Shown here: piece by piece, positions 15,051 through 60,971 of the stretch
How the letters are laid out: every line of letters starts with the position of its first letter
How positions within the stretch are numbered: the stretch's first letter is position 1
NCBI GenBank assembly: GCA_963783425.1
Contig: CAWANO010000004.1
Coordinates: 6,969 to 70,968 of the forward strand
Origin: an uncultured delta proteobacterium
GTDB lineage: Bacteria; Desulfobacterota; Desulfobacteria; Desulfobacterales; QNYZ01
Length of the DNA: 64,000 nucleotides
Direction: 5' to 3'
Translations under genes and position numbers: made by a program
Notes under the pieces: generated by a model
Told to the model about the DNA's origin: nothing
Databases searched by the model: none
What the model saw: the letters and a program-made list of their open reading frames with translations, nothing else

Positions 15051-15093
15051 CGAGTTGCCATTTTACACTTCGGCCGTGAGGCCAATTCAACGG

Positions 15094-15507: not shown

Positions 15508-15646
15508 ATATTATTTTAACGCACTTGACACATTCCGCTACCAATAGTAAAATTAAGAAAAAATTAAGCTTTCTTAAATATTTTATTCCGACCTATTAAA
15601 ATATTAAATCGAAAAATGACGCAATAGCACAACTCGGGAGGAAGCG

Positions 15647-16096: not shown

Positions 16097-16139
16097 CGGG
16101 ACCTTTTTAGGCCCCGACGACGGGCTGTGGGTGGCCCGT

Positions 16140-16559: not shown

Positions 16560-16597
16560 ATCGTCTTACCTCTCCTGATGAATAAAATAAACAGCGC

Positions 16598-17644: not shown

Positions 17645-17679
17645 CTTGTCGATCTCCTTGCCGGTTCAAATGGGGGCAT

Positions 17680-18906
17680 TTAGTTCTTGGCAGGGCGGCT
17701 CTTAGCCGGAGCGACCCGTTTGGCGGGGGCCCGTCTGGGGCGCGCTTTGGGGGCGGTACCGGATTTGCGAGGGGCGGCCTTGCGCGTTGTTTTGTCAGTG
17801 GTTTTAGGGGTTTTCGGGGGCGCTGTTTCGCGTTGCCTTAGCCAATTGGCGATCTTGGGGGCGAACTCCTGCTGGTAGCGCGAACTGACATAGATGCCGA
17901 TGTGGCCTGTTTTCAGGCAGAGGTCCTCGGTGTCCTTGCTGCCCACGCTACCAGTGAGTCGCTCGCAGGCGGCCGGCGGCACAAGGTGATCGTACTGGCC
18001 ATAGATGTTGAGAAGCGGCATGGTGAGCTTCTTCAGATCCACGCGCTGGCCGCCGACAACCATCTTGCTCTGGATGAGCAGGTTCTTCTGGTAGCAATCC
18101 TTGACGAACTGGCGAAAGGTATCGCCGGGAACGTCGGGGCTGTCGAAAATCCATTTTTCCATGCGGATGAAGTTTTCCACGAAATTTTTGTTGTCAATAT
18201 TTTCGAGAAATCCGACGTATTTGTCGATCATCAAGCGGGCCGGGTTGAGCAGCAGAAACCCGAAATTGAGAAAGTCTCCGGGAATGTTGGCGAAGGTATC
18301 CACCATCTTGTCGGCGTCGACGTGCCGCATCCACAGGTGCAGCAGGCCCTGGTCGGTGTCGAAGTTGGTGGGCGTGACCGTGGTCACCAGGTTCTGGATC
18401 TTGTGGGGATGCAGGGCGCTGTAAATGACACTGAATGTGCCGCCCATACAGATGCCCATCAAGTTGACCTTGTCGATGCCGTGGCGCTGGCGGATAAAAT
18501 CGACCACGTTGTCCATGTAGCCGTTGACATGGTCATCGATGGTCAGGTAGCGATCCTTGCGGCCCGGATAGCCCCAGTCGATCATGTAGATGTCGAGCCC
18601 GTCGGCCAGCATGCGTTCCACCACGCTGCGGCCCGGTTGAAGGTCGAGCATGGTCTCACGGTTGATCAGGGCATAGACCACCAGCAGGGGGGTGGGCACC
18701 TTTTTCTCCTCCGGGGCGGTGCTTTTGTAGTACTTCAGCCGAACCCGATCCTCTTCGTAGACCATTTCGTAAGGGGTGGTGGCCAGATCGGTCTGCATGG
18801 GTTCGAGCAATACATCGGAGGCTTTGCTGGCACGTTCGCCCACGCGTTGGGCGTCTTCGGCCAGCTTGGACAGGATGAGATCGACAGGAATTTTGGGCGA
18901 TGTCAT
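17680..18906 (-). CDS. phaC: Class III PHA synthase catalytic subunit PhaC with a basic K/R/P/A-rich C-terminal tail
   Basis: Lipase box with Cys NLMGICMGGTFSV and a conserved class III body. The start is set at ATG 18906 behind GAGGGGGAAG. The last ~52 aa are TAPPKTPKTTDKTTRKAAPRKSGTAPKARPRRAPAKRVAPAKSRPAKN. Confidence 0.85.
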   Translation of the reverse strand: MTSPKIPVDLILSKLAEDAQRVGERASKASDVLLEPMQTDLATTPYEMVYEEDRVRLKYYKSTAPEEKKVPTPLLVVYALINRETMLDLQPGRSVVERMLADGLDIYMIDWGYPGRKDRYLTIDDHVNGYMDNVVDFIRQRHGIDKVNLMGICMGGTFSVIYSALHPHKIQNLVTTVTPTNFDTDQGLLHLWMRHVDADKMVDTFANIPGDFLNFGFLLLNPARLMIDKYVGFLENIDNKNFVENFIRMEKWIFDSPDVPGDTFRQFVKDCYQKNLLIQSKMVVGGQRVDLKKLTMPLLNIYGQYDHLVPPAACERLTGSVGSKDTEDLCLKTGHIGIYVSSRYQQEFAPKIANWLRQRETAPPKTPKTTDKTTRKAAPRKSGTAPKARPRRAPAKRVAPAKSRPAKN

Positions 18907-18975
18907 GATCTTCCCCCTCAACAGTCGTTGACCCGCAGGTTAAAGGCGCGTCTTCAAGATGTGAACGGCTTGTGG

Positions 18976-19872
18976 CTACTTGGTTCCGGCCAGTTGTTTT
19001 TCAAGCTTTCGGACCCGGCGTTTCAACAGATAGATCTCCTTGTAGAGCTCATCCATCTCTTTTTGATCCGGGATCGGTAGCGATTGCAGTGCATCGAGGA
19101 TCACCTCATTGCGCGCCGCCACGAACGCCTCCAGGCCCGCCAGGGTGCGCGCCATCACATCGGCAAAGTGGTCCGATTGATAGAGCCGCATGTAATGGCC
19201 TTCGAGGATTTTGATCCAGCGCTGATAATATTCGCGGCTGGTGCCGGGCAGTTCATTTTTTTCAGATAGGTCGTTGATCTCCGCGTGCAGCACCTGGATC
19301 GATTTTTCTATGGGCAGGTGCAGCACTTGGATAAATTCAGCCATGACGGTCTGGAAGCGAAAAAAACGGTCCAGGCTCTGTCCCATTCGTTCCTGGTAAA
19401 AGCGGGTCAGCCCCACCTGGGGTACGTTTAAAAACTGGCGGAACTCTTTTTCGTAAAGATCGCTCCAGATGCGCAGGGCCTCGCGGTCCAGGTTCTCGAA
19501 ATTATACGCCTGGCCGGACTGTTGCATCTGGTTGGTTTTCTCAAGCCACTGGGTTTGCAGCTTGAAGAAGGTGTTCCAACCCGATTCCACCATACGCAGC
19601 ATCACCTCGGGCACGGCCCGCAGGCCGCTGGTGAGCCGCTCCATGGTTTCGGGGTTTTCCATGGCCGTGGCCAGGGTCTGAAAGCTTTTCAAGGAGGCTT
19701 CCCAGGCCATCTTGGTATCGGGGCGCCGGGTGTTTTCCTTGGCCGGGTCATCGGAATCTTGCGAAGGCCGCTGTTGCAGGGCCGCCATGCTATTGTAGAA
19801 TCGGTTGGCCGTCTCCAGCCAGGCCGAAAGCAGGTTTTGGGCGCTTTGTTGCGATCTGTCGTCGGACGCCAT
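18976..19872 (-). CDS. phaE: Class III PHA synthase subunit PhaE
   Basis: Lies immediately upstream of phaC on the same strand, at a size typical of PhaE. It has a coiled-coil C-terminus LPIPDQKEMDELYKEIYLLKRRVRKLEKQL. The start is taken at MASDDRS (the track ORF begins at 19923). Confidence 0.6.
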   Translation of the reverse strand: MASDDRSQQSAQNLLSAWLETANRFYNSMAALQQRPSQDSDDPAKENTRRPDTKMAWEASLKSFQTLATAMENPETMERLTSGLRAVPEVMLRMVESGWNTFFKLQTQWLEKTNQMQQSGQAYNFENLDREALRIWSDLYEKEFRQFLNVPQVGLTRFYQERMGQSLDRFFRFQTVMAEFIQVLHLPIEKSIQVLHAEINDLSEKNELPGTSREYYQRWIKILEGHYMRLYQSDHFADVMARTLAGLEAFVAARNEVILDALQSLPIPDQKEMDELYKEIYLLKRRVRKLEKQLAGTK

Positions 19873-20029
19873 CGGGCACCTCTGGCTTGTTATCTGTCGA
19901 TGGAAGAGCTGCGCTCGAGTCAATAAGTGTTAACCATTACTATGCCCATGGCTGCAAAAAATATCAAGAGCAGCCACAAGCCCGGCCTGGCGGCTGGTGA
20001 TTGTGCTTACCGGTTGCTGGGCGATCAGT

Positions 20030-36186: not shown

Positions 36187-36549
36187 CCAAGAACTGCGTT
36201 GGATAATTTTTACACATGTACCGTCAGGAATTTTCAGACAGGCGCACTCCATTCCGCGCGGTATGGAGTCTCGCGCCCTCTTGTTTTATCTTGAAAATCA
36301 TCTCCAATTTTCGATAATCAGGACGCGTTTGAGCGTCATCGTAAGGGCAAGCTAAGTACGCAGGCCTCGGCTATAGAATCCTGCGATGACGATCGTTTTA
36401 CACCTATAGGTGTACACCTCCGCACATTTCGGCTGAGTAATACTGGATGCGGAATGGTCCAAAAACAGGTCAGCCATCACAAGTCAAAAACCAAAGCAAC
36501 AATTTTAGCGGCAACCTGGTCTAATCCGGCGATTTCGTATGTATTATGG

Positions 36550-37151
36550 TCATTCCTTTATAAGTATATAATTATTGCCGCCCGTACTAACAAAAATCCT
36601 ATCATCGTTGCAATTTATCCTGCCACTGATACATGGGTAAGCATCATTCCCGTGAAGGGGTAATTAAAGATCCAGGTGTTCCCTTGAGGAGAGCAAAGCC
36701 ATCACCAGTGGCATAATTGCCATCACCAGGATTTATAAAAGTAGTATACCTATCTACGTGCACATAGGCCAGTCTAACGAAAATCAAATTAGGCAGCATT
36801 AGAATATCATGTTTATAAGTACCCATCAAGAGTAGAAAAGTCACAGCCCACCTCAGTGGTGGTTGGTGTTGCGGTTGTGGTCGGTGACGCAGTGGTGTTT
36901 GGTGACGCAGTGGTGTTTGGTGACGCAGTGGTGTTTGGTGACGCAGTGGTGTTTGGCCCTGGGGGGCTTGTTTGCGCATGCGCAGGCAGGATGACTTTTT
37001 CGACCATCGGTCTCATCCACTGCGGAGGTAATGCGGACACCGTTGCAGCGGCCGTACCGCCAAAAACGATTTTTTTAAGCGCCTTGCGGCGGGATTCACC
37101 TTTTTCCACTTCGTCACTGTTTATCTGGTTGTAATCAAAATTTCTCCCCAT
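36550..37151 (-). CDS. Leader-family protein P1: Tat-like conserved leader, Thr/Pro tandem-repeat linker, small Cys-bounded domain; at least 3 frame breaks
   Basis: GGAGGAAG RBS. MGRNFDYNQINSDEVEKGESRRKALKKIVFGGTAAATVSALPPQWMRPMVEKVILPAHAQTSPPGP(NTTASP)x4 TTTATPTTTEVGCDFSTLD continues in other frames as GTYKHDILMLPNLIFVRLAYVHVDRYTTFINPGDGNYATGDGFALLK / QGNTWIFNYPF / GNDAYPCISGRINCNDDRIFVSTGGNNYILIKE. It is collinear with paralog P2. Confidence 0.55.
36883..36954. repeat. Four perfect tandem copies of the 18-bp unit ggtgacgcagtggtgttt (encodes NTTASP on the minus strand)
   Basis: Counted directly: units at 36883-36900, 36901-36918, 36919-36936 and 36937-36954. Confidence 0.95.
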
Positions 37152-38046
37152 TTTACTTCCTCCGCTGTTGATATGAATAGCAATAAGCGATTGGGTTTGC
37201 CCATAAAACGAAAACGGGCAGGAAAAAATTACTGATATCATAGCCTGCTAAACAGGCTGTCGCTTCATTGGCCAAAACCGCTGTAGCATCTTTCGCGGGA
37301 GTTAAATACAACCATCGGCCAGATCATTTGTGTGCTGAATCCGAGCCGGCTAGTACCAACAGGCCCATTGCACCGGTTCAAGGCGCATGTCAGTCAGCGC
37401 TTTGACCCTGGATTTCAAACAAAAACAAATCGATCGCAACATGTGGGCTATTGACACCCGTTTGATGAACTCTGTTTAACCCTGGGGTTGCCACGCAAAG
37501 AAAATCCGCAAACATGCCGAGGTTGCGGCACAGCGGCACAAGCCGGCCATACAGCAGGTTCGAATCTTTAAGCAGGATCTTTATCATCATCGCCAGGTGA
37601 CAGGACCATTGCCTCGCTCGGCACTTTTCTGATGAGCCATGTCAAGTTCAATTCATTGGTAACGTTCAAAAGTTGTGGCATCCATAAAAAACCAAGTCGG
37701 ATAGCCTTCATCATCTGGGAGGTCAAGGGTCAAGATAAACGGCTACGCCGCCCTTGACATCCCAAATTATTCCGGCTTGTTGGCAGTTAAGGGATGAATG
37801 AATTCACCTTATCAAAAGATGAGATTCTTATCGAACCCAAAGACTGCGTAAACATCGTATCAAAAATTTGGAATAATATTAATACATTTGATAAATTATT
37901 TCAAGTTTCTATTGATATTTACGGTCCCGGTTTTGTTTTATTTTTGGTTCATCCGGAAAATGCGTACTTAAAGCTTGAAAAAGAGTGGACAAGCAGGTTT
38001 CTCTTTTTAGAGTTTGCGCAAACATCCAAAAAGAAGGGAGCCCATC

Positions 38047-38400
38047 ATGTCCACCAGCCTCTTGTATCATGGATTCGGTATCCGCGGCTATCAGTACCTT
38101 CGTACACGTTTCCAAAAGGGCCAAGTGATTTTCACGGTCAAAAAGAAACCCTTGAGCGGCAGGTACTCAAAGGCACCCGCTGGTTGCTACTGAAAAACCC
38201 CGAAAACCTCGATCCGGATCCTGAAAAAAGAGAAAAAGAGCGTCTACAGCAAGCCTTGGAACTTAATGTGCCGCTTGCCAAAGCCTACTATCGCAAAGAT
38301 GAATTGCGTGAGTTCTGAAAATTCTCCACGAAACAAGAGGCCACCACGTGGCTCGATCAATGGATCAACACGGCCCGCGAGACCAAAATATCGATGCTCA
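38047..38400 (+). pseudogene. ISL3-family transposase remnant (internally deleted, nonsense codon)
   Basis: MSTSLLYHGFGIRGYQYLRTRFQKGQVIFTV (ISL3 N-terminus) jumps to ...VLKGTRWLLLKNPENLDPDPEKREKERLQQALELNVPLAKAYYRKDELREF-TGA-KFSTKQEATTWLDQWINTARETKISML (ISL3 C-terminal region). The TGA at 38316-38318 sits where ISL3 transposases have Trp. Confidence 0.65.
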
Positions 38401-38695
38401 TCAAAGGTGAGAGTCCCTTGTGCCATTCGACCTTATTTTTCAACCAAGCTATCTGGTCGTAGAACCCGACTCGTGCTGGCTTGTAGGGCAGACTTTCTTC
38501 ACTTCAAAAAATGCGAATCCGACTTGCAGATGACGCCTTGAAGCCGCCCACGCCCTTACTTGCTGACATTTTCATTCAACAGCATTGAACACATCTTATG
38601 GGTGTACCGCCTCAACATACTTCTGGCAGAGATAATACTGGATGCGGAGATGATCCAATAATCTGTAAGGCACCAGCAGGTCAAACTAAAGGCAA

Positions 38696-39273
38696 CTATT
38701 TTAGCGGTACCAAATCTTTCGTAAGTATATAATTATTGCCTCCAGTTCTAATGAAAATTCTATCATCGTTGCAATTTATGCTGCCACTTATAGATGGGTA
38801 AGCATCATTACCTTGAAGAGCGTAATCAAAGTAAAAGGTGTTCCCTTGAAAAGAGCCAACACCATCACCATAAGCATAGTTACCATCACCAGGATTTATA
38901 AAAGAATATACTTCATTTATGCCATGTAGTCTGACTAATATAGTCTGAGGAGGAGCATTAGGAGAATAATGTTTATAATTACCAGTAAGAGTATCAAAGT
39001 TGCAGCCCACCGTAGTGGTGGTTGGTGTTGCAGTGGTGGTTGGTGTTGCAGTGGTGGTGGTGTTGCAGTAGTGGTTGGCCCTGGGGGACTTGTTTGCGAA
39101 TGCGCAGGCAGAACAACTTTTTCGACTACCGGCCTTACCCACTGGGGAGGTAATGCAGATACCGCTGTCACGATCGTGCTACCAAAAACGATTTTTTTTA
39201 GAGCTTTGCGGCGGGACTCACTTTTTTCTACCTCGTTACTGTGTGTCTGGCTGGAATCATTTTTTCTCCCCAT
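38696..39273 (-). CDS. Leader-family protein P2 (paralog of P1), one frame break inside its tandem repeat
   Basis: GGAGGAGGAAAA RBS. MGRKNDSSQTHSNEVEKSESRRKALKKIVFGSTIVTAVSALPPQWVRPVVEKVVLPAHSQTSPPGPTTTATP.. then TTTATPTTTATPTTTTVGCNFDTLTGNYKHYSPNAPPQTILVRLHGINEVYSFINPGDGNYAYGDGVGSFQGNTFYFDYALQGNDAYPSISGSINCNDDRIFIRTGGNNYILTKDLVPLK. Confidence 0.6.
39015..39067. repeat. Tandem 18-bp unit gtggtggttggtgttgca x2 plus a 17-nt third unit (one T missing)
   Basis: Units are at 39015-39032, 39033-39050 and 39051-39067. The 17-nt unit coincides with the P2 frame break. Confidence 0.9.
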
Positions 39274-39550
39274 TTTTCCTCCTCCACTAGTGGTGGGAAT
39301 AGATATCTGCGATTGGGTTCGCCCAAAAAATTGAACACGGATCAAAACAAACTGCTGATATCATAGCCAATTAAAATCTGAATCGTACGATTAAAACTCC
39401 CAGGGCTGTCACGTACCTTATTTTTCCCGCTTTCAATACCTTTGTCTTGCTTTGGGGTCCCGAAACTGTAATGAAATCGTTTAACACTTTACAGATAAAT
39501 TAAAATTATCGTTCCCTAAAGGATATAAATACTCTTACCAATTATAATAT

Positions 39551-39577
39551 CGCGGTTATCCATAAAGCTCCAGTAGG
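39551..39577 (+). repeat. 27-nt motif cgcggttatccataaagctccagtagg (third copy of the motif at 41644 and 41791)
   Basis: Has 2 mismatches to the reverse complement of 41791-41817. Flanking bases also resemble the sequence around 41635-41700. Confidence 0.7.
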
Positions 39578-40060
39578 CGAAATCACGACCTCTGTGAAGC
39601 TTAAAACACGACCATATCAGAATCAATTTTTCCAATTTTACAATTGGTTATCTAAAATGCTCCGATTTAGTGCCAATGCAAATCTGGTAACATTTTGCCC
39701 AACTAGAGTTTTATTGATAATCGCGTATAATATTTCAGTTTGTCCAAGTTCAATGCTTGCTCGCATTTTAGCACCAGAAGTATTCCTTGTATTTCGAGGG
39801 CTAAAATTGGCGCCAGACACAGAAATTGGGAAAAGCGGTCATCCAGAAAGCTCGAGTTGAAACCATTTGCATCACAGGTGATCATCTTAGATTTGACTGG
39901 TAAATTGCAGTTTCTTATTGAAATATCAATAAATTGAATCAGGATTGAAAATGTTGACTCAGATCCCATTGGGTGCCTACTTGAGCTTTCTGAATAACCG
40001 CATTGGGAAATATGTGGCGCTTTAAGAAAAAGATAATTGAAGCTACCCGCCGCAAGCCGG

Positions 40061-41245
40061 CTAGGTATCAAACTGAATGATAAAGCACCCCTTTTTCTGT
40101 AATTTAACTCGCGGGGTCGATTTCTCCTTCAGGTTCAGATAGATTTTACCCGTTTCCCATTCCTCACTGATTTCCATTAATACAGCACTGACCAGGCGAA
40201 GTAGCGACGTTTCGTTTGGGAATAACGTTGCCACTCGTGTGCGGCGTTTGACCTCACGGTTCACCCGCTCCAACATGTTGGTGGTGCGCATTCGTCGGCG
40301 ATGACCCATGGGTAGCGAAAAGACCGCAAAACCTTCGGGCAGAGCCGTCTCCATCCAGCGGGACAGATGCGACGCCGACTGCCGATACTTCTCCACCGCC
40401 TGCTCCAAAAGACTCTTGGCCTCTTTATCGTCCGGCGCCGCCAAGATACGGTCAATCTTCCGGTTAACGGGTTTTAGCATCTCTCTTTTGGGTACATACG
40501 CGGCGGCATTACGCTGAAGATGAAAATGGCAGCGATTCCAGGCCGCCCCACTAAAGGTCGCCTTGATAGCAGTCTTCAAGCCTTCGTGGTCGTCGCTGGT
40601 GATCAGTTCAACACCATGCAAACCGCGCTTTTTCAAGCCGGATAAAAAGGTGCGCCAATGCACCTCTGCCTCACTCAACGAACAACTGACACCCAACAGG
40701 GTGCGTTTACCATCATCCCGCACCCCGGCGGCAATTAATACTGCACAGCAACGAATCGCCCCATCTACACGAACATCTTCATAACGAGCGTCCAGTAACA
40801 AATAGGGGCAGTGACCCAAAGAGCGGTTGCGCCACTGTTCCAGCTGTTTATCCAACAGCTTGGCGCAACGGCTCACCTCCGTGGTGGTCACCTCCAGGCC
40901 GCCCAGGCTCTCCATCACTTTGGTTACCTTGCGCGCGGAGACTCCGTTGACATACATCTCGCCTATGGCCAGCTTCATGGCTCTTTCACTACGCAACCCC
41001 CGCTCCAAAGCAGACGGGTAAAATTTCACACCGCCGCGAACCTGGGGGACTCTAAGGGGGAGAGACCCCACTCGGGATTTGAAGGGTTTGTCCCTATAGC
41101 CGTTGCCATGCCCCTTACGCGAAGCGGTTCGCTGCCACGGATCGGCGCCCAGGATGCGGCTGCACGCGACTTTCATCGCTTCATTGATCAAAACCGAGAC
41201 AACGTCGGCCAGGCCATCCATACCGTTTTCAATTAAGGCTTCCAA
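40061..41245 (-). CDS. IS256-family (Mutator-type) transposase
   Basis: Intact 394 aa: ...YLLLDARYEDVRVDG...LLGVSCSLSEAEVHWRTFLSGLKKRGLHGVELITSDDHEGLKTAIKATFSGAAWNRCHFHLQRNA...TTNMLERVNREVKRRTRV. The ORF runs through the left IR. Confidence 0.9.
   Translation of the reverse strand: MEALIENGMDGLADVVSVLINEAMKVACSRILGADPWQRTASRKGHGNGYRDKPFKSRVGSLPLRVPQVRGGVKFYPSALERGLRSERAMKLAIGEMYVNGVSARKVTKVMESLGGLEVTTTEVSRCAKLLDKQLEQWRNRSLGHCPYLLLDARYEDVRVDGAIRCCAVLIAAGVRDDGKRTLLGVSCSLSEAEVHWRTFLSGLKKRGLHGVELITSDDHEGLKTAIKATFSGAAWNRCHFHLQRNAAAYVPKREMLKPVNRKIDRILAAPDDKEAKSLLEQAVEKYRQSASHLSRWMETALPEGFAVFSLPMGHRRRMRTTNMLERVNREVKRRTRVATLFPNETSLLRLVSAVLMEISEEWETGKIYLNLKEKSTPRVKLQKKGCFIIQFDT
40070..40078. repeat. 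Left copy of the 9-bp target-site duplication AAACTGAAT of the IS256-family element
   Basis: Identical 9-mers directly abut both ends of the element (40070-40078 and 41443-41451). Confidence 0.85.
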
Positions 41246-41442
41246 TGCATGCTCATTTTTTGTAGATTAAACACAGTGGGTCATTTAAGTTCCTCCTTTT
41301 TTGGTTTCAGCGAACCTAAGGAGTATTGATTAGACCCACGTTTTCAAGTTTTCGATTGAGCTTGCCTCCCAGGGGGATTTTTAGGCCCCCTTGGGTACAA
41401 ACTCTAACCCTCGACAAAAAATTACAGAAAACGGTACACTAA
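40079..41442 (-). mobile_element. Intact IS256-family insertion sequence (1364 bp)
   Basis: Imperfect terminal inverted repeats: gataaagcacccctttttctgtaattt.. at the left, versus the reverse complement of the right end ttagtgtaccgttttctgtaattt... It has a single Mutator-type transposase ORF and a 9-bp TSD. Confidence 0.85.
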
Positions 41443-41451
41443 AAACTGAAT
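41443..41451. repeat. Right copy of the 9-bp target-site duplication AAACTGAAT
   Basis: See 40070-40078. Confidence 0.85.
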
Positions 41452-41643
41452 TGGTATCTAATCTATATTGTGGGGACACGTAATATCCCCTCAAACCCCT
41501 TTTATGCATCTTTACACCACCGTAAGCGGATGGGGTATTAAATACCACAGTTGAAACAATGCAAAAAAAATGCCCGTTGGAATATATTGGAAAAAATAGC
41601 TTAGATATGGGATCTCATTGGTGTCCGGTTAAGAATCGAATAA

Positions 41644-41817
41644 CGCGGTTATGCACAAAGCTCCAGTTAGAAAAGTATGGCCCGATCTGAAGTTCGATAA
41701 AATCAAGCATATTGTATAACACCCCGGAAAATCAGTAAAGTTGGATTTCAATAAAATCATGTTTGATGCCATAATGATTTCATAAATCAGCCTACTGGAG
41801 CTTTGTGCATAACCGCG
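41644..41817. repeat. About 24-bp inverted repeat pair (cgcggttatgcacaaagctccagt / actggagctttgtgcataaccgcg) enclosing about 125 bp at the transposase 3' end
   Basis: Read directly. The right arm encodes the last residues of the IS4 transposase (..AVMHKAPVG). Confidence 0.8.
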
Positions 41818-42980
41818 TCGAATAATTTCAATTGGATATGGCCGGTAGTAATTTCGTTTTTGTAATAGTTTTCTGTGAACACCCATGAAATAAGGGTTTT
41901 CTCAAAAAGGGTTATGCTTAAAATCTGTAAAATTGTGTAGAGGCTCTGTTCCAGCTTCAAGCGTTTTTTCACGATGGCAACCAGCACATAAACGCAGATG
42001 GCAATCCAAATTTGAGTCTTAACAGCGGTTTCAGAAATACCGAAAAATTTCTTTATCCGTAGGTGCTGTTTGATCCATTTAAAAAACAGCTCCACTTGCC
42101 ATCGGCACTTGTACAAATCCGCTACGGTTCGAGCCTCTAAAGAAAAATTGTTGGTTAGAAACGTTAGTCGTTTTTTTGTTCCTGTGTCGTAATACTTTAT
42201 CCGCCTGAGTTTATCCGGATAAGCATTTGCCGATTTTGTTATGACCGGCCGTACGGTCTGATCACAAATGATACCGGTGGATTTATCCACTGGTGCCGAG
42301 TACAAACGGCGCAGTTGCGTATTCTTCTTGGTTCTCAAAATGAAAAAGGCTAAACCACTGTGCAGGCTATAGAGCCTTTCAAAATCGAGATAGGCGCGAT
42401 CCATAACATAAATTGAACCGGGCTCTGGTAACAGCTCATCAACGATGTTGACATCATGAACCTTGGCGTCGGTTATAGAAACAAACGAAGGGATGCTACC
42501 CCTCAGGTCAAGCAGCGTATGGAGCTTTATCCCGCTTTTTGTTGATCGGAACCGCGCCCATGGAAAAACAGACCGACACAGATCAATAGTGGATGCATCC
42601 AATGCGTACACCGTTTCATCGAGCTGGAGGCCAAAGTCATCATCAGCATAAAGTTCTCGGGCCCAGCCAATCAGAACTTGTGCAAAGTCACAGTAAATGC
42701 GCCAATCTCGCTTTTCGTTTGCATCAGCAAGCGTACTTTTGGCAATTTCGGTCTGAATGCCAACGTGGTGAAGCTTGCCTTGCATGGCGCGCAAACATAG
42801 CACCGTATCGCGGAGGCTTTCACGATAGGTCAACTGGGCGAACGCCATGCAAAGAAACTGTTCATAGCATGTAAAAGAACGAATCCGGTAGTTGCCTTTA
42901 TATCGTTTAACGCATGTGCGAAAGCTCTTTTTGGGTAGAAAATCTAACAGTTGTGAAAAACCGATCCGCCCCTCATACAT
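41787..42980 (-). CDS. IS4-family DDE transposase (DUF4372 + DDE_Tnp_1 type)
   Basis: Intact 397 aa: FSQLLDFLPKKSFRTCVKRYKGNYRIRSFTCYEQFLCMAFAQLTYRESLRD...YALDASTIDL...YVMDRAYLDFERL...YKCRWQVELFFKWIKQHLRIK. Confidence 0.85.
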   Translation of the reverse strand: MYEGRIGFSQLLDFLPKKSFRTCVKRYKGNYRIRSFTCYEQFLCMAFAQLTYRESLRDTVLCLRAMQGKLHHVGIQTEIAKSTLADANEKRDWRIYCDFAQVLIGWARELYADDDFGLQLDETVYALDASTIDLCRSVFPWARFRSTKSGIKLHTLLDLRGSIPSFVSITDAKVHDVNIVDELLPEPGSIYVMDRAYLDFERLYSLHSGLAFFILRTKKNTQLRRLYSAPVDKSTGIICDQTVRPVITKSANAYPDKLRRIKYYDTGTKKRLTFLTNNFSLEARTVADLYKCRWQVELFFKWIKQHLRIKKFFGISETAVKTQIWIAICVYVLVAIVKKRLKLEQSLYTILQILSITLFEKTLISWVFTENYYKNEITTGHIQLKLFDAVMHKAPVG

Positions 42981-43766
42981 CGCCGCCTCCCTTCGCTATT
43001 GTGTCCTACGAAGGGTTGTAAGGGGCAATTTTTACGATTCCAAGAGGTTGCCCATGTGAAAATCGCAATATATCCAGTATTAACAACAAGATACAACAAA
43101 ATATGGCAATCTTAACCGGACACTAGTGGACAATAATATATATTTCTATTTGTACCGATCCAAACTCACGCCGAGCGTTAAATCTGTAGAAAATGCAACT
43201 GCCAGCACTCATTAACAGCCCGGACGGTCATCGATAGCTCGAAGAAACCGATTACATACTGGCGTAAAGCGATGTTGTTTTTCACACACGCAAATCCGGC
43301 ATCAATGCCGTTAGTCTCAAAGAACTATTGGCCCTGGTTAGCTACCACAGCGCCTTTTGATAGCTGAAAACCAAGACGATGCACCATATAAAATGGGACG
43401 AAATCAAGTGGGATGTCGACCCAATTTCCATTTTTTTCTCATTTGTGCTTTCTATAAAACCACGGAAAATATTCTTCACGTGATTAAAAGTTGGCAAACC
43501 TACTGGATGATACCATTTCCGAAACTAGGAATAAAATTACAGGATATTGGGGAAAATATTACATAATTATCTATGGAAAATTTTTATCGATCACTTTTTG
43601 TTTCATTTTCTGACTTCGACAATGATAGGCATATTATCCAGGCTATCCATTGAATTAAAGTGGATTTGACAAGAATTCACATTACTATCAAATTGAAAGG
43701 GCTCAAATAGACCCTACCAGCAGTGCCTCCGAATCCCTATTTTCGATTTAAACAATCTGTTCTCAT

Positions 43767-44685
43767 TCATTCAAGAAGAAGATGCATTGAATTTATCCAG
43801 CCAGCATCTGGTCGTACAGGTCCAGCATCGAGGTCAGGACGCATCATCAATAGCGCCTTTGCCGCTCCCAATACTGTGTTTTCCGCATCCTCAGGAACAT
43901 AGGTCAGCGAGCTTGTCCCGAACGTATAGTTGGCAGGAGAGAATATAAATTGGTCACTTTTCATCCATCCTTTTGGCAGATCGGGATTTTCCTCATAGAC
44001 GATCTGGGCCAATTTGGTAACCCAATAGGTGAAATTGTCTTCATCCGGCAGAGGCGGCATAAGAAACATGAGGATTTTATCGTTGCCATAAGCCCACTTG
44101 GCAAACGGAGCCACATGCGCGGCAACATTGGACCGGGTATTATGGGGAAAATATTCGATACAGACGCCATCGAGAAGGTTTTTAACGGATTCGACGTGAT
44201 CATGATCTTGAACCCAGGAATGGCTGTTCATTATGATCTTCTTGTCCGGAAATCTGTCCCTGACCCGCTGCAACTCATCCCTGGTCAGCATCGAATTCCC
44301 AGCCGTGCCGTCGAGCACAAATACATAGGGCACGGACAAGCCGAAGCTTTCAATAAAGGCGATATCGGGTTGGGTGCTGTCCCAGTGAATCCCATCATAT
44401 GGCAATTCGGTAATTGCGCGGCGCTGTTTAAAGTTATTGAAAACGGCTTCTTGCTGACTTCGTGTTAGTCGCCCGATAGGAACTAGATTTCGCCAAAGGC
44501 CCCCAGCTCAGGTCTGCCACAACGGGCCATTTGCTTCGATCTCCCATAGCTATGGTGGCACTTGGGTCAGCTGTGGAGCCAAGGCCGACGGCGACCTCAT
44601 ATGCTAAAGCGCATGGTACCAAGAATAGCATTAAGGTCATAACAATAGCTATGGTGAATATTTTTTGACCGGTATCCATCATCAA
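43767..44685 (-). CDS. Secreted hypothetical protein, one apparent frameshift at a G-run near 44500
   Basis: The signal peptide MMMDTGQKIFTIAIVMTLMLFLVPCALA and about 40 aa lie in 44434-44685. The protein continues in the 43767-44405 frame (NLVPIGRLTRSQQEAVFNNFKQRRAITELPYDGIHWDSTQPD...). I recognise no family. Confidence 0.5.
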
Positions 44686-54522: not shown

Positions 54523-55404
54523 GTGACTAAGTTGCGTGAAAAAATGATCAGGGCAATGGACTTGAAGAACCTCTCGGATCACACCAAACGCTCTTACCTG
54601 GGAGCGGTCACCGCACTGGCCAAGCACTATCGGCAATCTCCGGAAACAATCTCCGATAAAATGATCGACGATTACCTGCTCTATCTGAAAAACGAAAAAG
54701 GCAATGCGCCCGCTACTTGCTGCAGCGCTTTAAACGCACTTCGCTTTTTCTACACCCACGTGCTCGACAAGCAGATATCAGTTGATTTCAGCCTCTCAAA
54801 AAAGCCCCGCAGACTGCCCACCGTGCTCACCAAAGAGCAGATCTGGAAGATAATCTGCGCCCCGGCCAATCTAAAACACCGCCTTGTCCTGATGACCACC
54901 TATGCCGCTGGATTAAGAGCCGGTGAGGTGATGCGATTAAGGCCCGAGCATATTGACAGCAAACGCATGTTGATCAAAGTGGTCGACGGTAAAGGCCGCA
55001 AGGACCGCTACACCATGCTGTCACCAAAGCTTCTGGGCGAGCTGCGTGGCTATTATAAAAAGTGCCGCCCACAAACCTACCTGTTCCCATCGAATTATAA
55101 AAAGCACAACGATAAACCACTGTGCTACGAAACGGTGCGATCCATCTACGAAAAGGCCCGTAAAAAGGCCGGGATTAAAAACGGGCGGGGGCTGCACACG
55201 TTGCGTCACAGCTTCGCCACGCATCTGCTGGAAGCCGGTTACGATATCCGTAAAATACAAGTGTTGATGGGCCATGCGAGACTGACCACCACCATGATCT
55301 ACCTGCATGTGAGCCGCGAAACTCTGTCAAAAGTCCCCAGTCCCTTGGATCTTATTGACACTGAGCAGTCACACAGAAAGGACAGCCCCGATGGCCCAAA
55401 TTAA
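54523..55404 (+). CDS. Tyrosine recombinase (phage-integrase family) forming a pair with the IS91 transposase
   Basis: GTG start 6 nt after AGGAGG. Catalytic-region motifs are AGLRAGEVMRLRPEHID, LHTLRHSFATHLLEAGYDIRKIQVLMGHARLTTTMIYLHV. Confidence 0.85.
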   Translation: MTKLREKMIRAMDLKNLSDHTKRSYLGAVTALAKHYRQSPETISDKMIDDYLLYLKNEKGNAPATCCSALNALRFFYTHVLDKQISVDFSLSKKPRRLPTVLTKEQIWKIICAPANLKHRLVLMTTYAAGLRAGEVMRLRPEHIDSKRMLIKVVDGKGRKDRYTMLSPKLLGELRGYYKKCRPQTYLFPSNYKKHNDKPLCYETVRSIYEKARKKAGIKNGRGLHTLRHSFATHLLEAGYDIRKIQVLMGHARLTTTMIYLHVSRETLSKVPSPLDLIDTEQSHRKDSPDGPN

Positions 55405-56560
55405 ACAACACCGACTGGAGCTGGCCGTCGTTCTGAGAAAACATATCGCCGATTACCAAAACCAATACCCGCTGTGGCCCGAGCATCGCAAAATCGTATC
55501 TGACCTGCTAAACTGCCGCACCGTGCGTCTTGGCGGGCATATCGATCGGTGCAACCGCTGCGCCGCGCTGCGCATTGTCTATCATTCATGCCGCAATCGG
55601 CATTGTCCCAAATGCCAGCACATGCCGCGCGAACGATGGCTGGCGAAAAGAAAAGAAGAAATTCTATCGGCCAGCTACTTCCACGTCGTCTTTACCGTGC
55701 CCCATGAACTCAACGCTGCCATTTTAAACAATAAGAAAGTGATGCTCAATATCCTTTTTAAAGCCGCCTCCGCGACGCTTTTGACTTTCGGCGAAAATGA
55801 GCTCGGCGGTAAATTGGGCTTTATTGCGACCTTACATACCTGGGACCAGAAGCTCAACGCGCATTTTCATCTGCACTGCCTGGTGGCCGGCGGGGCGGTA
55901 TCTAAAGACGGTTCATCATGGATAGCTTGTAAAGGCGACTATCTTTTTAACATGCGGGCATTGTCTTTGGTTTTTCGCGGTAAGTTCATGGCGCTGATGA
56001 CCAATGCCAGCAAACGCGAGGATCTCAAGTTCGCCGCTGGCCAATACAAAAACCTTAAGGCCAGGCTGTATAAGAAAAATTGGATTGTCGATGTGCGCGA
56101 TCCGGTCAAAAGACCCGATCACGTTCTTGAATATATGGCGCGCTACACCCACCGGGTGGCCATTGCCAACAGCCGTATCACCGCCCTTAAAGACGCCATG
56201 GTGACCTTCAGCATTAAAAACCGAAAGAAAAATCGGACTCAACCGCTGACCATCACCGCCGTGGAGTTCATCCGGCGGTTTTTGCTCCACAGCCTACCGT
56301 CCGGTTTTGTCAGAATCCGGCATTACGGGTTTTTGGCCAATCGAAACCGATCGGCAAACATCAATGCCATCCGTAAATTGATGGGTTTGTCGGTACCGGC
56401 TGAAAAACCCATCGCTACGGCACAGCAGGTGATCCAGGAGCTGACCGGCACTGACATTACCGCCTGTCCATGCTGCCAGAAAGGTCGGATGGAATTGTAT
56501 CTGGAGATACCCAAAGTCTTGGCACGGCCACCCAACGCCCTTGCTTTTGGGGCCGCTTAG
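55391..56560 (+). CDS. tnpA: IS91-family (Y2 HUH, rolling-circle) transposase
   Basis: An N-terminal zinc-binding region (CNRCAALRIVYHSCRNRHCPKCQ), HFHLHCLV, and YMARYTHRVAIANSRI (tandem Tyr region). It overlaps the recombinase stop by 14 nt. Confidence 0.85.
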   Translation: MAQIKQHRLELAVVLRKHIADYQNQYPLWPEHRKIVSDLLNCRTVRLGGHIDRCNRCAALRIVYHSCRNRHCPKCQHMPRERWLAKRKEEILSASYFHVVFTVPHELNAAILNNKKVMLNILFKAASATLLTFGENELGGKLGFIATLHTWDQKLNAHFHLHCLVAGGAVSKDGSSWIACKGDYLFNMRALSLVFRGKFMALMTNASKREDLKFAAGQYKNLKARLYKKNWIVDVRDPVKRPDHVLEYMARYTHRVAIANSRITALKDAMVTFSIKNRKKNRTQPLTITAVEFIRRFLLHSLPSGFVRIRHYGFLANRNRSANINAIRKLMGLSVPAEKPIATAQQVIQELTGTDITACPCCQKGRMELYLEIPKVLARPPNALAFGAA

Positions 56561-57057
56561 GCGTCTTATCTGGTATTTGAATCGTTATTGTAGAAAACCA
56601 TAGGTGAATTACGCCCTAACTTGTCTGAAAGACTTTCAGTTGATGCAAAAATAGAGTGCAAATGGTGTTTTATGGCATCTAATCTCGTAAATAGTAATCC
56701 AACCCGCCTCTTATCAAAACCAGATCGTGGCATCTCGCCTGCAACTGGTCAAAAGCATCATGATTACAATACCCATATAAAAATATCATGCCAACACCGC
56801 CTCACCGCGGCTTCGCCCATCATCGTTTTATCAATCATCCCGCCCTTTAAAATCTCATCGTAAATTTTTCCCGCGACCAAACTGGAAAACCAATATCCTC
56901 AGTATTATGCTGCTGCGGGACAATAGATAAAACGCTTATTAGATATCACAGGTCGGGGACGCTTTCAAGCGAGCATGGATAACCCGCCCGGGGGGTGAGG
57001 GCGTCAAATGGATCGATTGGTAACCCCGACACCAAAATTATATTAAGGAGGAATGGC

Positions 57058-57531: not shown

Positions 57532-57819
57532 TAAGGAAAAAGTTTCGCCCAGTGGAAGCACACGGGGTGAATCAACAACCAAAATGACGCCTGACGGCCA
57601 GTTCTAATTTGGCCGTTGATCTTGTCAATGCGATAGTTCAACCGATGCCAAACCTGTTTTTCCCACTGCGCATGGTTCACTCTCCGTAGGCCTAGAAGAT
57701 CATATCGGACAGATAAATAACCCTGATCTCCTTAGCTATAGCGTGCGGGTGTGTGGCGGTGAGATCCTGCGTCATCATGCCCACATAGGGGCTGCCGCGA
57801 AGCATTATCGATGTAGCGT

Positions 57820-60398: not shown

Positions 60399-60971
60399 CT
60401 ACGTTGGAGCGTTACACGCAGCGGTTGTAGCAGTGTAGCTATAGGATTGAGACCCCTGTTCAGGTATGGAAACTTCAACCGTACCAGCGATCGAGTCGCT
60501 GTTGCAGATCACGGTGCCGGAAACCGTTACGGAGGTCTGGTCAAATGTGAAATCCACGCTGAAGTCGCCGCCCGTAACAGGCACGCTGGTCGATTGAGTT
60601 TGTGATGGAGGTGCACCTTCTCCCACCGGGATTGCAGTAACATCGACGCTGCCATCCGCGTCGACTTCGATCTCTACCCTACCTCCCTCGACGCCACCAC
60701 AATAAGTGCCGGCAATGTCGCAGGGTGTCGTGGTTGGCGCCGGTGTGGTTGCGGGCGGTGGTTGTGGGCTGGTTTGGGCGTGGGCCGGCACCTGCACGCG
60801 GTCCACAACCGGCTTGGCCCAGCGTTCGGGCAGTAATGCTACGCCAGTGGCCACGCCCGTGCCCACGATCATCTTTTTCAGAGCGGCACGCCGCGCACGG
60901 GAATCCGGGGTGTTTGACGGTAATTGAGGATTCGCCTCTTCGGTGGATGATTCGTGTTCTGATGCCATCAT
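60399..60971 (-). CDS. Leader-family protein P3: same conserved leader as P1/P2, unrelated C-terminal domain
   Basis: Intact 190 aa: MMASEHESSTEEANPQLPSNTPDSRARRAALKKMIVGTGVATGVALLPERWAKPVVDRVQVPAHAQTSPQPPPATTPAPTTTPCDIAGTYCGG...beta-rich...TTAACNAPT. Confidence 0.65.
   Translation of the reverse strand: MMASEHESSTEEANPQLPSNTPDSRARRAALKKMIVGTGVATGVALLPERWAKPVVDRVQVPAHAQTSPQPPPATTPAPTTTPCDIAGTYCGGVEGGRVEIEVDADGSVDVTAIPVGEGAPPSQTQSTSVPVTGGDFSVDFTFDQTSVTVSGTVICNSDSIAGTVEVSIPEQGSQSYSYTATTAACNAPT

Follow-up and report, generated by a model that had tools for sequence, protein, structure and literature searches.

A Tat-like leader that may guide glycosylation in a large family of threonine-rich bacterial proteins

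Three family genes in the window

The window, which here means the whole stretch of 64 kb of DNA that was analysed, carries three minus-strand genes (P1, P2 and P3; Table 1). They were described in an earlier note made from the sequence alone, and renewed reading of the sequence and its open reading frames showed that the coordinates and peptides given there are exact. The leader of P3 is composed of an acidic N-terminal tail, the twin-arginine motif SRARRAALKK, a weakly hydrophobic stretch of G, A, T and V, and the block LPERWAKPVVDRVQVPAHA, which terminates at a predicted AHA/Q cleavage site (the slash marking the cut). All residues that are invariant in the family profile (R, W, P and P-A-H) are found in it.

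Table 1 Features of the three family genes (positions in the window)
Feature	Position	Strand	State or basis
P3 whole gene	60399-60971	-	Intact 190-aa ORF
P3 leader, residues 1-65	60777..60971	-	ORF translation, pattern match, family invariant residues
P3 Q-T-S and Thr/Pro tract (QTSPQPPPATTPAPTTTP), candidate modification site	60723..60776	-	Family conservation, in-cassette relatives
P3 cargo, residues 84-190, 4 Cys, and stop codon; predicted eight-stranded up-and-down beta-barrel	60399..60722	-	AF2
P2 whole gene	38696-39273	-	One 1-bp frameshift within TTTATP repeat
P2 leader, residues 1-59, ESRRKALKK ... LPPQWVRPVVEKVVLPAHS	39097..39273	-	Translation, leader comparison
P2 QTS and TTTATP repeat tract, with frame-shifting 1-bp deletion inside	39011..39096	-	Two-frame reading, P1 alignment
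P2 cargo, about 104 aa, 2 Cys, beta-rich, and stop codon	38696..39010	-	ORF 38696-39142, AF2
P1 whole gene	36550-37151	-	Several indels relative to P2
P1 leader, residues 1-59, ESRRKALKK ... LPPQWMRPMVEKVILPAHA	36975..37151	-	Translation, pattern match
P1 Thr-rich tract: TSPPGP, PNTTAS x4, PTTTATPTTT	36855..36971	-	Sequence reading
P1 degenerate cargo, frameshifted several times relative to P2	36550..36854	-	DNA alignment

The window contains only dispersed 'orphan' substrate genes, and P3 is the sole intact copy, both P1 and P2 being damaged. The two parts of P2 are read in different frames, the leader in 38935-39345 and the cargo in 38696-39142. Pairwise alignment of P1 and P2 gave a DNA identity of 83%, with the upstream region included, and the two genes are recent duplicates. 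Their repeats differ in length by 37 bp, and the cargo part shows one 2-bp and several 1-bp indels, the indels of 1-2 bp being located at alignment columns 435, 454-455, 520, 565 and 604. The P1 cargo is readable only by switching among three reading frames. Judged from these indels relative to P2, P1 would be a pseudogene or the bearer of assembly errors.

Since P1 and P2 are located in an IS-rich island and are so similar at the DNA level, it could be argued that the resemblance of the leaders is due to local, recent duplication, or even to chance, and has no wider meaning. This explanation has a negligible probability and is refuted by the genome-wide pattern matches and leader-profile matches in many phyla: homologous leaders occur by the thousands, P3 has a diverged leader and surroundings of a different GC content, and zero pattern matches are expected from shuffled sequences. 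The similarity thus extends well beyond recent duplicates, and the link to mobile elements that was suggested earlier looks incidental to this window.

Family size and conservation of the leader

A search with a leader HMM, as proposed in the earlier note, yielded thousands of members as well as the co-occurring gene set that is discussed below. The profile matches 4,632 protein clusters (clustered at 50% identity) at E <= 1e-3 and 1,940 at E <= 1e-10, and the match is at the N-terminus in every cluster. A search of genomes with a degenerate DNA pattern gave at least 119 loci in many taxa, some genomes carrying as many as 11 copies or more. Members of the family occur in Arenicellales, sponge symbionts, cable bacteria, Chromatiales, Acidobacteriota and other groups. 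A plasmid collection that was searched with the consensus leader gave no match. By their sequence, P1-P3 are members of a bacterial family of putatively secreted threonine-rich proteins that is very large and has no name. In databases, family members are presently annotated as 'hypothetical' or as generic 'Tat signal' proteins.

The claim that the genes share a leader of about 45 residues that is strongly conserved was well founded: the P2 leader is 74% and the P3 leader 38% identical to that of P1, and 23 alignment columns are invariant. The degenerate DNA pattern W..P(7)PAHAQ matches P1 (36972-37019) and P3 (60774-60821), where shuffles lead to an expectation of 0.00, and misses P2 due to the presence of AHS at that position. 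In the family, W, P and P-A-H are invariant and A-H-A nearly so, a K or R is found two residues past the W in 81% of the members, and among 279 members position +1 is Q in 96% and position +3 is S or T in 100%. Leader and cargo differ in this respect: in 46 of the 146 family representatives, the leader core of 43 aa is at least 85% identical, whereas the median identity of their mature parts is only 9%. Conservation of the leader appears to exceed what a cleavage site needs, and the cargos are indeed interchangeable, as was proposed earlier.

Tat features of the first half and the nature of the c-region

The first half of the leader reads as a Tat signal of the kind already described, in agreement with the earlier view that its start is Tat-like. 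An RR pair is present in 265 of 286 members (93%), at a fixed distance upstream within the leader, and 14 more have RK, KR or KK. The sequences follow the twin-arginine consensus S/T-R-R-x-F-L-K (SRRKLLK in the family, ESRRKALKK in P1 and P2, ARRAALKK in P3). The rest of the layout also corresponds to that of Tat signals, with a weak h-region (about 12 residues, mean KD 0.80; the most hydrophobic 19-mer has a median KD of 1.16), a basic residue in the c-region and an AxA cleavage site. However, at about 20 residues the c-region is atypically long, as was already noticed in the window, with about 20-25 residues between the hydrophobic stretch and AHA, and throughout the family it is conserved beyond what is usual for a Tat signal.

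Among 119 members, 71 have a match to the NCBIfam model TIGR01409 (TAT_signal_seq) at E <= 1 (best E 3.5e-5) and 75 to TIGR02811 (formate_TAT), whereas none has a match to a Pfam Tat model at E <= 0.01. A stray match to TIGR04224 was seen in one of these 119 members (E 0.059). Among the NCBIfam Tat models, P1 matches TIGR02811 alone (E 0.052); with TIGR01409, P3 gave nothing at E <= 1, and neither Pfam nor NCBIfam gave a meaningful match with P1-P3. The earlier statement that the module could not be placed in a known family thus holds for the module as a whole, which is modelled by neither Pfam nor NCBIfam, but not for its first half, in view of the TIGR01409 matches. For the second half, LPxxWxKPVVDxVxLPAHA/QTS, no description was found in the literature and databases searched. 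We consider the chances about even that the leader consists of two functional parts, a Tat export signal followed by the sequence LPxxWx(K/R)PVV(D/E)xVx(L/V)PAHA/Q-T-S.

The main alternative to such a division is that the whole module is a plain Tat signal of an expanded gene family, with a c-region that serves export through TatBC contact, Sec avoidance or spacing of the signal peptidase site. The glycosylation cassette described below would then act on other targets or on the Thr tract alone, and the leader would remain unread. Tat models match about 60% of the members and the naming by NCBI, which calls two of them 'twin-arginine translocation signal domain-containing protein', agrees with this; moreover, AHA is a good signal-peptidase site and the c-region carries the expected basic residue. 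Nevertheless, we find this explanation unlikely, since conservation between phyla and on unrelated cargos, and conservation at positions +1 to +3, is not a property of ordinary Tat signals, and since a second, internal copy of the c-region motif occurs without RR and without a hydrophobic stretch.

Alternatively, in line with the sorting or anchoring role suggested in the earlier note, the leader could be an uncleaved N-terminal anchor or sorting signal that tethers the Thr-rich stalk and the cargo to the inner membrane or hands them over to a surface-anchoring machine. The distance between the hydrophobic stretch and AHA is long for signal peptidase I, and a Thr/Pro stalk with a globular head resembles the architecture of surface-displayed proteins. 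The probability of this is low: with a length of about 12 residues and a KD of about 0.8-1.2, the hydrophobic stretch is short and weak and would make a poor membrane anchor, no sortase-like or exosortase-like gene co-occurs with the family, and P-A-H-A-Q is nearly invariant, as a processing site would be. Two other types of signal were rejected as well, a lipoprotein signal due to the lack of a lipobox Cys at +1, and a double-glycine/PCAT leader due to the lack of a GG motif and a transporter.

Threonine-rich tract and cargo domains

The Thr/Pro tract after the leader, recognised correctly in the earlier note, was regarded there as a linker. It is probably a modification site, and the 'business end' of the protein, since precursors that are encoded inside the cassette described below often consist only of leader and poly-Thr. 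In loci that lack the leader, the protein encoded next to the glycosyltransferase is likewise marked by poly-Thr. Of 263 members, 117 have a T/S/P-rich 12-mer that begins at the predicted cleavage site; that an obvious tract of this composition is present in only 44% of the members counts against the mechanism proposed below.

The median mature length is 141 aa, with a range that extends beyond 250 aa, and the cargo domains are of extracytoplasmic types (FAS1, CHRD, collagen-like, LTD, Lcl_C). An even number of Cys residues is present in 167 members, and an odd number in 22. Cargos that are rich in Cys and depend on periplasmic disulfides are atypical Tat clients, which counts against the Tat model. 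The cargos of P1/P2 and P3, considered unrelated before, are probably remote relatives: they align in register around G..F...SG.I.CN.D.I (BLASTP E 0.007) and a one-to-one profile test of P2 against P3 gave E 1.5e-4, so that homology is weakly supported. Cargos homologous to that of P3 are present in family members P0051, P0075, P0076 and P0097. The AF2 model of the P3 cargo is a confident beta meander (pLDDT about 90 across residues 85-190), with avidin, streptavidin and lipocalin as the best PDB matches (TM 0.50-0.57), all of which are weaker than E 1e-3 (E >= 6.5e-3). For the P2 cargo, a single-sequence AF2 model is all-beta with 7 strands, at low confidence (pLDDT 59).

A co-occurring PqqD / HprK-GT2 / NTP_transf_5 cassette

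No processing enzyme had been noticed near the genes. This holds for the 64-kb window, which contains no PqqD / HprK-GT2 / NTP_transf_5 cassette, but elsewhere, in many phyla, such a cassette adjoins family genes. Its products are a peptide chaperone of the PqqD type, a fusion of an HprK-like kinase with a GT2 glycosyltransferase, and a nucleotidyltransferase of the NTP_transf_5 family. In 26 of 119 genome blocks (8 kb), originating from Desulfobulbaceae/cable bacteria, Chromatiales, Azoarcus, Hyphomicrobiales, Vicinamibacterales, Arenicellales and sponge symbionts, NTP_transf_5, PqqD, HprK-like or GT2 genes are located near a family gene and usually adjoin it. An independent, precomputed annotation of one locus (L126) shows the order family gene, PqqD, GT2, NTP_transf_5, PqqD. 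About 78% of the blocks lack any cassette part, most family copies being dispersed, and the association thus rests on a minority of loci. An apparent NTP_transf_5-leader fusion at locus L051 seems to be read-through of a truncated gene and was not used.

A reciprocal search that started from the GT2 domain yielded 80 metagenome loci, 64 of which have other cassette parts. A leader gene is present in 25 of the 80 loci, at a median distance of 351 bp; where both flanks measure 1.5 kb or more, it is present in 10 of 16 loci. PqqD was found in 23 of the 25 loci with a leader and in 23 of the 55 others (Fisher p = 2e-5), in a set that is biased, the query being derived from family-adjacent genes, and confounded by how long each contig is. 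The association of the family with the cassette is thus observed in both search directions, and the precursors inside the cassette are mostly leader plus poly-Thr proteins of 60-120 aa.

The specific co-occurrence of leader and PqqD gene argues against a plain Tat signal, for which it can be brought forward that most copies are far away from any cassette and that the glycosyltransferase also adjoins a leaderless poly-Thr protein. The latter, found in the leaderless loci, is of the Sec type, which is awkward for a strict model of cytoplasmic modification followed by Tat export.

The cassette genes match PF14907 (E 1e-35 to 1e-44), PF00535 and PqqD models (E 1e-7 to 1e-10). For the kinase-like domain, the best named model is TIGR04352 (HprK-related kinase A) of the HPr-rel-A system (E 2e-23; 37.6-82.8 bits against a cutoff of 200), and one PqqD protein matches TIGR04353, the PqqD family chaperone of that system (E 2e-5; 25.3 bits against a cutoff of 35). 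With scores so far below the curated cutoffs, the cassette is related to HPr-rel-A rather than the same. No paper on HPr-rel-A was found in a literature search, and we know of no substrate that has been described for it. A Walker-A motif is retained in 41 of 56 HprK-like domains, the kinase P-loop being lost in the fusions of cable bacteria. In most cassette enzymes, no 19-mer is hydrophobic enough to span a membrane (median KD < 1.6; 1.6 is exceeded by 16 of 48 HprK-GT2 and 10 of 32 NTP_transf_5 ORFs).

The composition of the cassette, which is of the RiPP-tailoring type, the small size of the minimal precursors and the resemblance of WxxPxV in the family to YxxPxL, the RRE-binding element of lasso leaders, raise the question whether the leader could be of the RiPP type only. 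The RR and the G/A-rich stretch would then serve enzyme recognition, and the products would stay in the cytoplasm or be exported by a non-Tat route. This is improbable, since RR is conserved in 93% of the members at a fixed upstream distance and Tat HMMs match, since the cargos have extracellular domain types and even Cys counts but no other signal peptide, and since the cassettes have no conserved transporter or leader protease. Neighbour clustering in both the genome and the GT2-retrieved locus sets revealed no dedicated protease, sortase or transporter, which is consistent with reliance on Tat and signal peptidase as general machinery.

Proposed mechanism

Because family genes elsewhere adjoin the chaperone, kinase and glycosyltransferase genes, the leader probably guides attachment of sugars within the cell, followed by export through Tat. 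That one leader would serve both purposes we regard as a proposition with equal chances of being right or wrong. In the scheme that we infer, from binding by the chaperone, through the site and chemistry of the modification, its timing before export and the dependence on Tat, to the site of cleavage, the second part of the leader would most likely be a RiPP-style recognition sequence for the PqqD-family chaperone, a protein class of which the known job is leader-peptide binding. In the cytoplasm, the chaperone would dock on the leader and present the adjacent Thr/Ser/Pro-rich tract to the HprK-related kinase domain, the fused GT2 domain and NTP_transf_5, which may O-glycosylate or phospho-glycosylate it. 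Related chemistry is known from lasso peptides, where HPr-kinase homologs phosphorylate a Ser of the precursor and an NTP-transferase then links hexoses to the phosphate group (PMC8498205). Once modified, and possibly folded, the protein would leave through Tat, the one general pathway known to accept bulky, pre-modified substrates, with cleavage by signal peptidase I after AHA and an N-terminal Gln as the result. The C-terminal cargo would be optional and freely swapped, in the window being a small disulfide-bonded beta-barrel, and the modifying cassette for the window's copies would have to be elsewhere in the genome.

A more explicit version, in which a PqqD/RRE protein masks the Tat c-region, the kinase-GT2 and nucleotidyltransferase meanwhile build (phospho)glycans on poly-Thr, and release of the chaperone licenses Tat export of a mucin-like glycoprotein and the final cut at AHA/Q, is tentative and has a less than even probability. 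In the literature searched, no description of a single dual-purpose leader, i.e. a Tat leader bound by a RiPP chaperone, was found, nor any connection between RiPP leader recognition and Tat proofreading/export.

Prospects

If the dual-purpose leader exists, it would give a name and a testable function to the N-terminal module of at least 4,600 protein clusters, and show on which proteins an orphan PqqD / HprK-like / nucleotidyltransferase / GT2 cassette may act. Furthermore, it would join RiPP leader recognition with Tat proofreading and export, extend leader-guided modification ('RiPP-logic') to full-size proteins, and constitute a natural cytoplasmic route of O-glycosylation that is coupled to Tat export and has spread to hypervariable cargo genes by the thousands. 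Three ecologically prominent but poorly cultured groups, sponge symbionts, Arenicellales and cable bacteria, would possess a large, hypervariable repertoire of proteins that are secreted or located at the surface and probably carry glycans. A compact leader that brings about first glycosylation and then export through Tat would also be an attractive tool for engineering Gram-negative hosts to secrete glycoproteins.

Comparison with known systems

REMPs such as TorD, DmsD and NapD are proofreading chaperones that bind Tat signals. These signals likewise combine a twin-arginine motif with an h-region of weak hydrophobicity, a c-region of basic character and an AxA site, and a dedicated cytoplasmic binder, as proposed here, holds the substrate until maturation ends. 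The binder is of the TorD or NapD family there and a putative PqqD/RRE-type protein here, and maturation is cofactor insertion instead of the proposed glycosylation of a Thr tract. Furthermore, the c-region of about 20 residues that is conserved across unrelated cargos sets the present family apart.

In the tailoring of the lasso peptides paeninodin and pseudomycoidin, the same trio of PqqD, HprK homolog and NTP_transf_5 occurs next to a gene whose leader is conserved and whose 'core' varies (PMC8498205). An aromatic-x-x-Pro-x-aliphatic motif is common to the family and to the YxxPxL of lasso leaders, which is conserved at positions -17 to -12 (PMC10368454). However, the family is not one of lasso peptides, as neither a B2 (transglutaminase-like) protease nor a C (asparagine-synthetase-like) cyclase is a conserved neighbour in either locus set. 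The 'cores' are Thr-rich tracts, often followed by folded domains of 100-250 aa, the leader carries a Tat signal, and the conserved GT2 is fused to a kinase-like domain. As in RiPPs in general, a conserved leader precedes a variable core, and precursor genes cluster with PqqD and modifying enzymes, at the level of the family rather than in the window. Typical RiPP precursors are small (< 100 aa), which the family proteins are not, apart from the in-cassette poly-Thr forms.

The serine-rich repeat glycoproteins GspB and Fap1 of Gram-positive bacteria, exported by accessory Sec, likewise have an unusually long, conserved N-terminal signal and hydroxy-amino-acid-rich repeats that are glycosylated in the cytoplasm before export, as proposed here, with a special export need. 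They are restricted to Gram-positive bacteria and have a KxYKxGKxW signal, a SecA2/SecY2 translocase and GtfA/B, but no RRE; the leader studied here has a different sequence, and no SecA2, SecY2 or Asp neighbours were found in the locus sets. In glycocins such as sublancin, a GT2-family enzyme (SunS) also glycosylates a leader-bearing ribosomal precursor (SunA), but these are small two-helix peptides with a double-glycine leader, a peptidase-ABC exporter, no PqqD, and S- or O-linked sugars at single sites. Prochlorosins, which have Nif11/NHLP-type leaders and hypervariable cores, differ from the family in leader, enzymes (LanM), export (C39 peptidase-transporter) and product size, but similarly comprise many paralogs per genome that combine a near-identical leader with unrelated downstream sequence, most of them far from a single maturation locus.

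Distribution and variety of the leader family

The leader of about 45 residues that P1, P2 and P3, the three minus-strand genes of the window, have in common is shared with a large family. A profile built from the three leaders retrieved 27 metagenomic proteins with the block RRxxLK...LPxKWxKPVVDxVxVPAHAQTSP, followed in each by Thr/Pro-rich sequence. A leader profile of 26 sequences was run against 1.84 billion cluster representatives and matched 4,632 proteins with E <= 1e-3, of which 1,940 had E <= 1e-10; the match lies without exception at the N-terminus, and the proteins are mostly 150-320 aa long. The leader HMM search proposed in an earlier note on this DNA thus recovered thousands of proteins, together with a co-occurring gene set. 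A DNA pattern scan that covered a single genome from each species gave at least 119 loci. Among the loci listed, the majority belong to Arenicellales, Ca. Poriferihabitaceae/Spongiihabitans and unclassified Gammaproteobacteria; Desulfobulbaceae are frequent, among them Ca. Electronema and Ca. Electrothrix, which are cable bacteria, and Thiocystis, Thiohalocapsa, Azoarcus, Hyphomicrobiales, Vicinamibacteria and others are represented by one genome each. Some genomes carry at least 11 copies. Cultured carriers include Thiohalocapsa marina DSM 19078 and Arenicella sp.

The C-terminal cargo is extremely varied and includes Lamin-tail, Lcl_C, Peptidase_S74 and many novel beta-rich domains, as well as FAS1-like, CHRD-like, collagen-like and Gly-rich cargos that were identified by eye rather than by a family-model scan. 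Any Pfam hit at all was obtained for about 10 of 119 members among the matches listed, and P1, P2 and P3 were not recognised by Pfam or NCBIfam. The 43-aa leader core is at least 85% identical in 46 of 146 representatives, the mature parts of which are 9% identical (median). Peptidase_S74, a self-cleaving intramolecular chaperone of the kind typically seen in phage tail fibres, forms the C-terminus ('SDIRLK', endosialidase-chaperone) of P0070, P0075, P0143, P0152, P0167 and L139:6282-6906; in P0075 it is joined to a P3-like barrel.

Anatomy of the leader

Statistics on 286 members show an RR pair in 93%, located 16-23 residues upstream of an invariant Trp, and an essentially invariant W-x-(K/R)-P-h-h...P-A-H-A. 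After the predicted cleavage site (AHA|Q), position +1 is Q in 96%, +2 is T in 75% and +3 is S/T in 100%. Hydrophobicity from RRxxLK to the Trp is weak (mean KD 0.8), with a short uncharged core that spans about 12 residues of the consensus leader; for the best 19-mer the median KD is 1.16. The mature part (median 141 aa) has an even number of Cys residues in 167 members and an odd number in 22, the last Cys lying a median of 7 residues before the C-terminus.

The view that the leader belongs to no known family holds in part. Its first half represents a signal type already known, since NCBIfam Tat models fit about 60% of the members (TIGR01409 71/119 and TIGR02811 75/119, among the matches listed) and NCBI applies the name 'twin-arginine translocation signal domain-containing protein' to the members from Thiohalocapsa and Thiocystis; those of Arenicella and Electronema are named 'hypothetical protein'. 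For the second half, and for the module taken as one unit, no description was found in the libraries searched.

In roughly 62 of 213 full-length members the motif formed by the final 12 residues of the leader, hh[D/E]xhhxPxAHA, recurs inside the protein, 33-68 aa past the first AHA|Q (e.g. L074:5574-6120, L150:385-1132, P0068 and P0130). This repeat comes without RR motif, hydrophobic stretch or WxxP, and could serve either for another cleavage or for another docking event.

A putative modification cassette beside family genes

Clustering of ORFs from the 119 listed 8-kb genome blocks around family genes gave one dominant set of non-family clusters, mostly adjoining the family gene. This cassette has four parts. 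One is a nucleotidyltransferase of the NTP_transf_5 type (PF14907, E 1e-35 to 1e-44), and another is a small protein of the PqqD family (E 1e-7 to 1e-10 with PqqD models, TIGR04353 at 2e-5). The third, an HprK-related-kinase-A-like domain (TIGR04352, E 2e-23, under cutoff), is in most cases fused to the fourth, a GT2 glycosyltransferase domain of high conservation. At least one part is found in 26 of the 119 blocks among the matches listed, covering at least five phyla or classes; the chance that a once-per-genome cassette falls in a random 8-kb block is well under 1%. In Thiocystis (L074), Azoarcus, Thiohalocapsa and Hyphomicrobiales the sole locus among the matches listed is a family gene inside a cassette, and an independent locus (L126) has the precomputed Pfam order family gene, PqqD, GT2, NTP_transf_5, PqqD. 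No conserved transporter or protease was found in the cassettes. Strongly hydrophobic segments are mostly absent from the cassette enzymes (median best 19-mer below KD 1.6, a value exceeded by 16 of 48 HprK-GT2 and 10 of 32 NTP_transf_5 ORFs). The Walker-A motif (GxGK[ST]) is kept in 41 of 56 HprK-like domains of metagenome cassettes; this P-loop is lost in GT2-fused domains of Ca. Electronema and Ca. Electrothrix.

Some loci carry extra glycosyltransferases (GT2/GT7C-like, O-fucosyltransferase, GlcNAc-transferase-2OG-oxygenase fusion). At a Pseudomonadales MAG locus (L053; 1-2835, 3876-5163), a 945-aa PF11397 GlcNAc-transferase-2OG-Fe(II) oxygenase fusion and a PF10250 GDP-fucose protein O-fucosyltransferase adjoin the family gene. 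Such enzymes of protein glycosylation are eukaryote-like and hint at glycosylation of hydroxyproline or Thr.

The association was also examined reciprocally, by searching metagenome contigs with the cassette GT2 domain (alignment A5). HprK-like, PqqD or NTP_transf_5 parts were also present in 64 of the 80 loci obtained, and 25 had a leader-HMM match, separated from the closest cassette gene by a median of 351 bp and usually with the family gene preceding HprK-GT2 on the same strand. Where at least 1.5 kb of flank was available on each side, the leader was found in 10 of 16 loci. PqqD occurs in 23 of the 25 leader loci versus 23 of the 55 others (Fisher p = 2e-5), and for loci of at least 5 kb in 20/22 with versus 9/26 without leader (p = 8e-5).

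The majority of the in-cassette precursors consist of the leader and a poly-Thr or Thr/Pro tract alone (60-120 aa). Examples of such minimal precursors are the 80-aa protein at L162 and WP_150091049.1 of Thiohalocapsa marina. At three cassette-like loci without PqqD, NTP_transf_5 and leader, the protein upstream of HprK-GT2 combines a Sec-like signal of the ordinary kind with a poly-Thr tail at its C-terminus, and therefore the cassette glycosyltransferase family may act on a different substrate class at leaderless loci. Since poly-Thr is the common denominator of both kinds of locus, the Thr/Pro tract, earlier regarded as a linker, is the likely modification site. In 117 of 263 members, among them P1 (four PNTTAS repeats), P2 (TTTATP repeats) and P3 (PATTPAPTTTP), the predicted cleavage site is where a T/S/P-rich 12-mer starts.

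The three copies in the window

When checked against the sequence, the three genes lie where the earlier note had placed them and the peptides it quoted are exact. Their leaders align with 23 invariant columns, and the back-translated pattern W..P(7)PAHAQ matches P1 and P3 in the window DNA, at a chance expectation of 0.00.

Coordinates of features in the window and at metagenome or genome loci
Feature	Position	Strand	Remarks
PhaR-like PHB_acc_N protein	15647-16096		polyhydroxyalkanoate group
MaoC dehydratase	16140-16559		polyhydroxyalkanoate group
GAF-domain protein	16598-17644		polyhydroxyalkanoate group
P1	36550-37151	-	versus P2, one 2-bp and several 1-bp indels in cargo part (36550-36854)
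ISL3 transposase fragment	37794-38318	+	low-GC island
P2	38696-39273	-	one frame change, within TTTATP repeat (39011-39096)
Mutator/IS256-family transposase	40061-41245	-	low-GC island
DDE_Tnp_1/DUF4372 transposase	41787-42980	-	low-GC island
Phage-type integrase and IS91 Y2 transposase	54523-56560	+
IS200-like Y1 transposase	57940-58365	+
Group II intron reverse transcriptase/maturase	58861-60258	+	140 bp between its end and P3
P3	60399-60971	-	intact ORF, 190 aa
AMP-binding gene, probably acetoacetyl-CoA or acyl-CoA synthetase	61218-63078	-	split, at least three overlapping frames
HprK-GT2 fusions lacking Walker-A	L007:5236-7047, L058:1865-3692		PGHLGGEHSL and PGRTENSRL at motif
Sec-type poly-Thr proteins, about 314 aa	L140:3441-4464, L154:2-920, L155:308-1268

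P1 and P2 are 83% identical in a DNA alignment, with repeats differing in length by 37 bp, and P1 is either a pseudogene or a bearer of assembly errors. The split AMP-binding gene shows that frameshifts are not limited to P1 and P2, so that indel errors in these two are possible; its own state reflects either widespread pseudogenisation or assembly indel errors.

In a high-confidence model (pLDDT about 90) the P3 cargo forms an up-and-down beta-barrel of eight strands, for which avidin, streptavidin and lipocalin are the best, though weak, PDB matches (TM 0.50-0.57, E >= 6.5e-3). Because the P2 cargo aligns weakly but in register with that of P3, and is itself modelled, at low confidence, as a beta meander, it is doubtful that the P1/P2 and P3 cargos are unrelated, as had been proposed. 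The nearest relative of P3 is P0051 (45% identity), the source assembly of which, RCNE01, also bears a cassette (L198).

No cassette homologs were detected by tblastn within the 64-kb window, and P1-P3 look like the dispersed substrate genes of other multi-copy genomes. P1 and P2 lie in a low-GC island (36200-44500; GC 0.45 versus about 0.60 elsewhere) that was probably acquired horizontally or inserted by IS. Positions 54523-60258 are a run of mobile elements. The polyhydroxyalkanoate-related gene group at 12700-19900 bears no relation to the leader.

Proposed mechanism and relation to known systems

Going beyond gene neighbourhood, we infer that a PqqD-like chaperone would dock on the leader c-region, and that the kinase-GT2 fusion and the NTP-transferase would (phospho)glycosylate the downstream Thr/Ser tract in the cytoplasm. 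The bulky modified product would then be exported via Tat and cleaved by signal peptidase I at AHA|Q. The first half of the leader would work as a Tat signal and the second half as a RiPP leader. Tat proofreading chaperones stay bound to signal peptides until maturation is complete, and the proposed docking of PqqD would parallel them by analogy.

In lasso systems, the RRE reads the YxxPxL motif of the leader. This motif is conserved at -17 to -12 (PMC10368454), and the invariant W-x-x-P-x-V of the family, at -15 to -10, resembles it, which is a lead rather than a test. In lasso clusters, a precursor Ser is phosphorylated by HPr-kinase homologs, after which an NTP-transferase adds hexoses to the phosphate (PMC8498205). 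A lasso system was rejected, because a cyclase and a B2 protease are absent, and the cassette differs from the HPr-rel-A models in scoring under their cutoffs. In the literature, which was covered incompletely, nothing was found that ties an RRE to a Tat signal or the cassette to such substrates. The nearest functional analogue is the signal of accessory-Sec serine-rich glycoproteins, which is unrelated in sequence.
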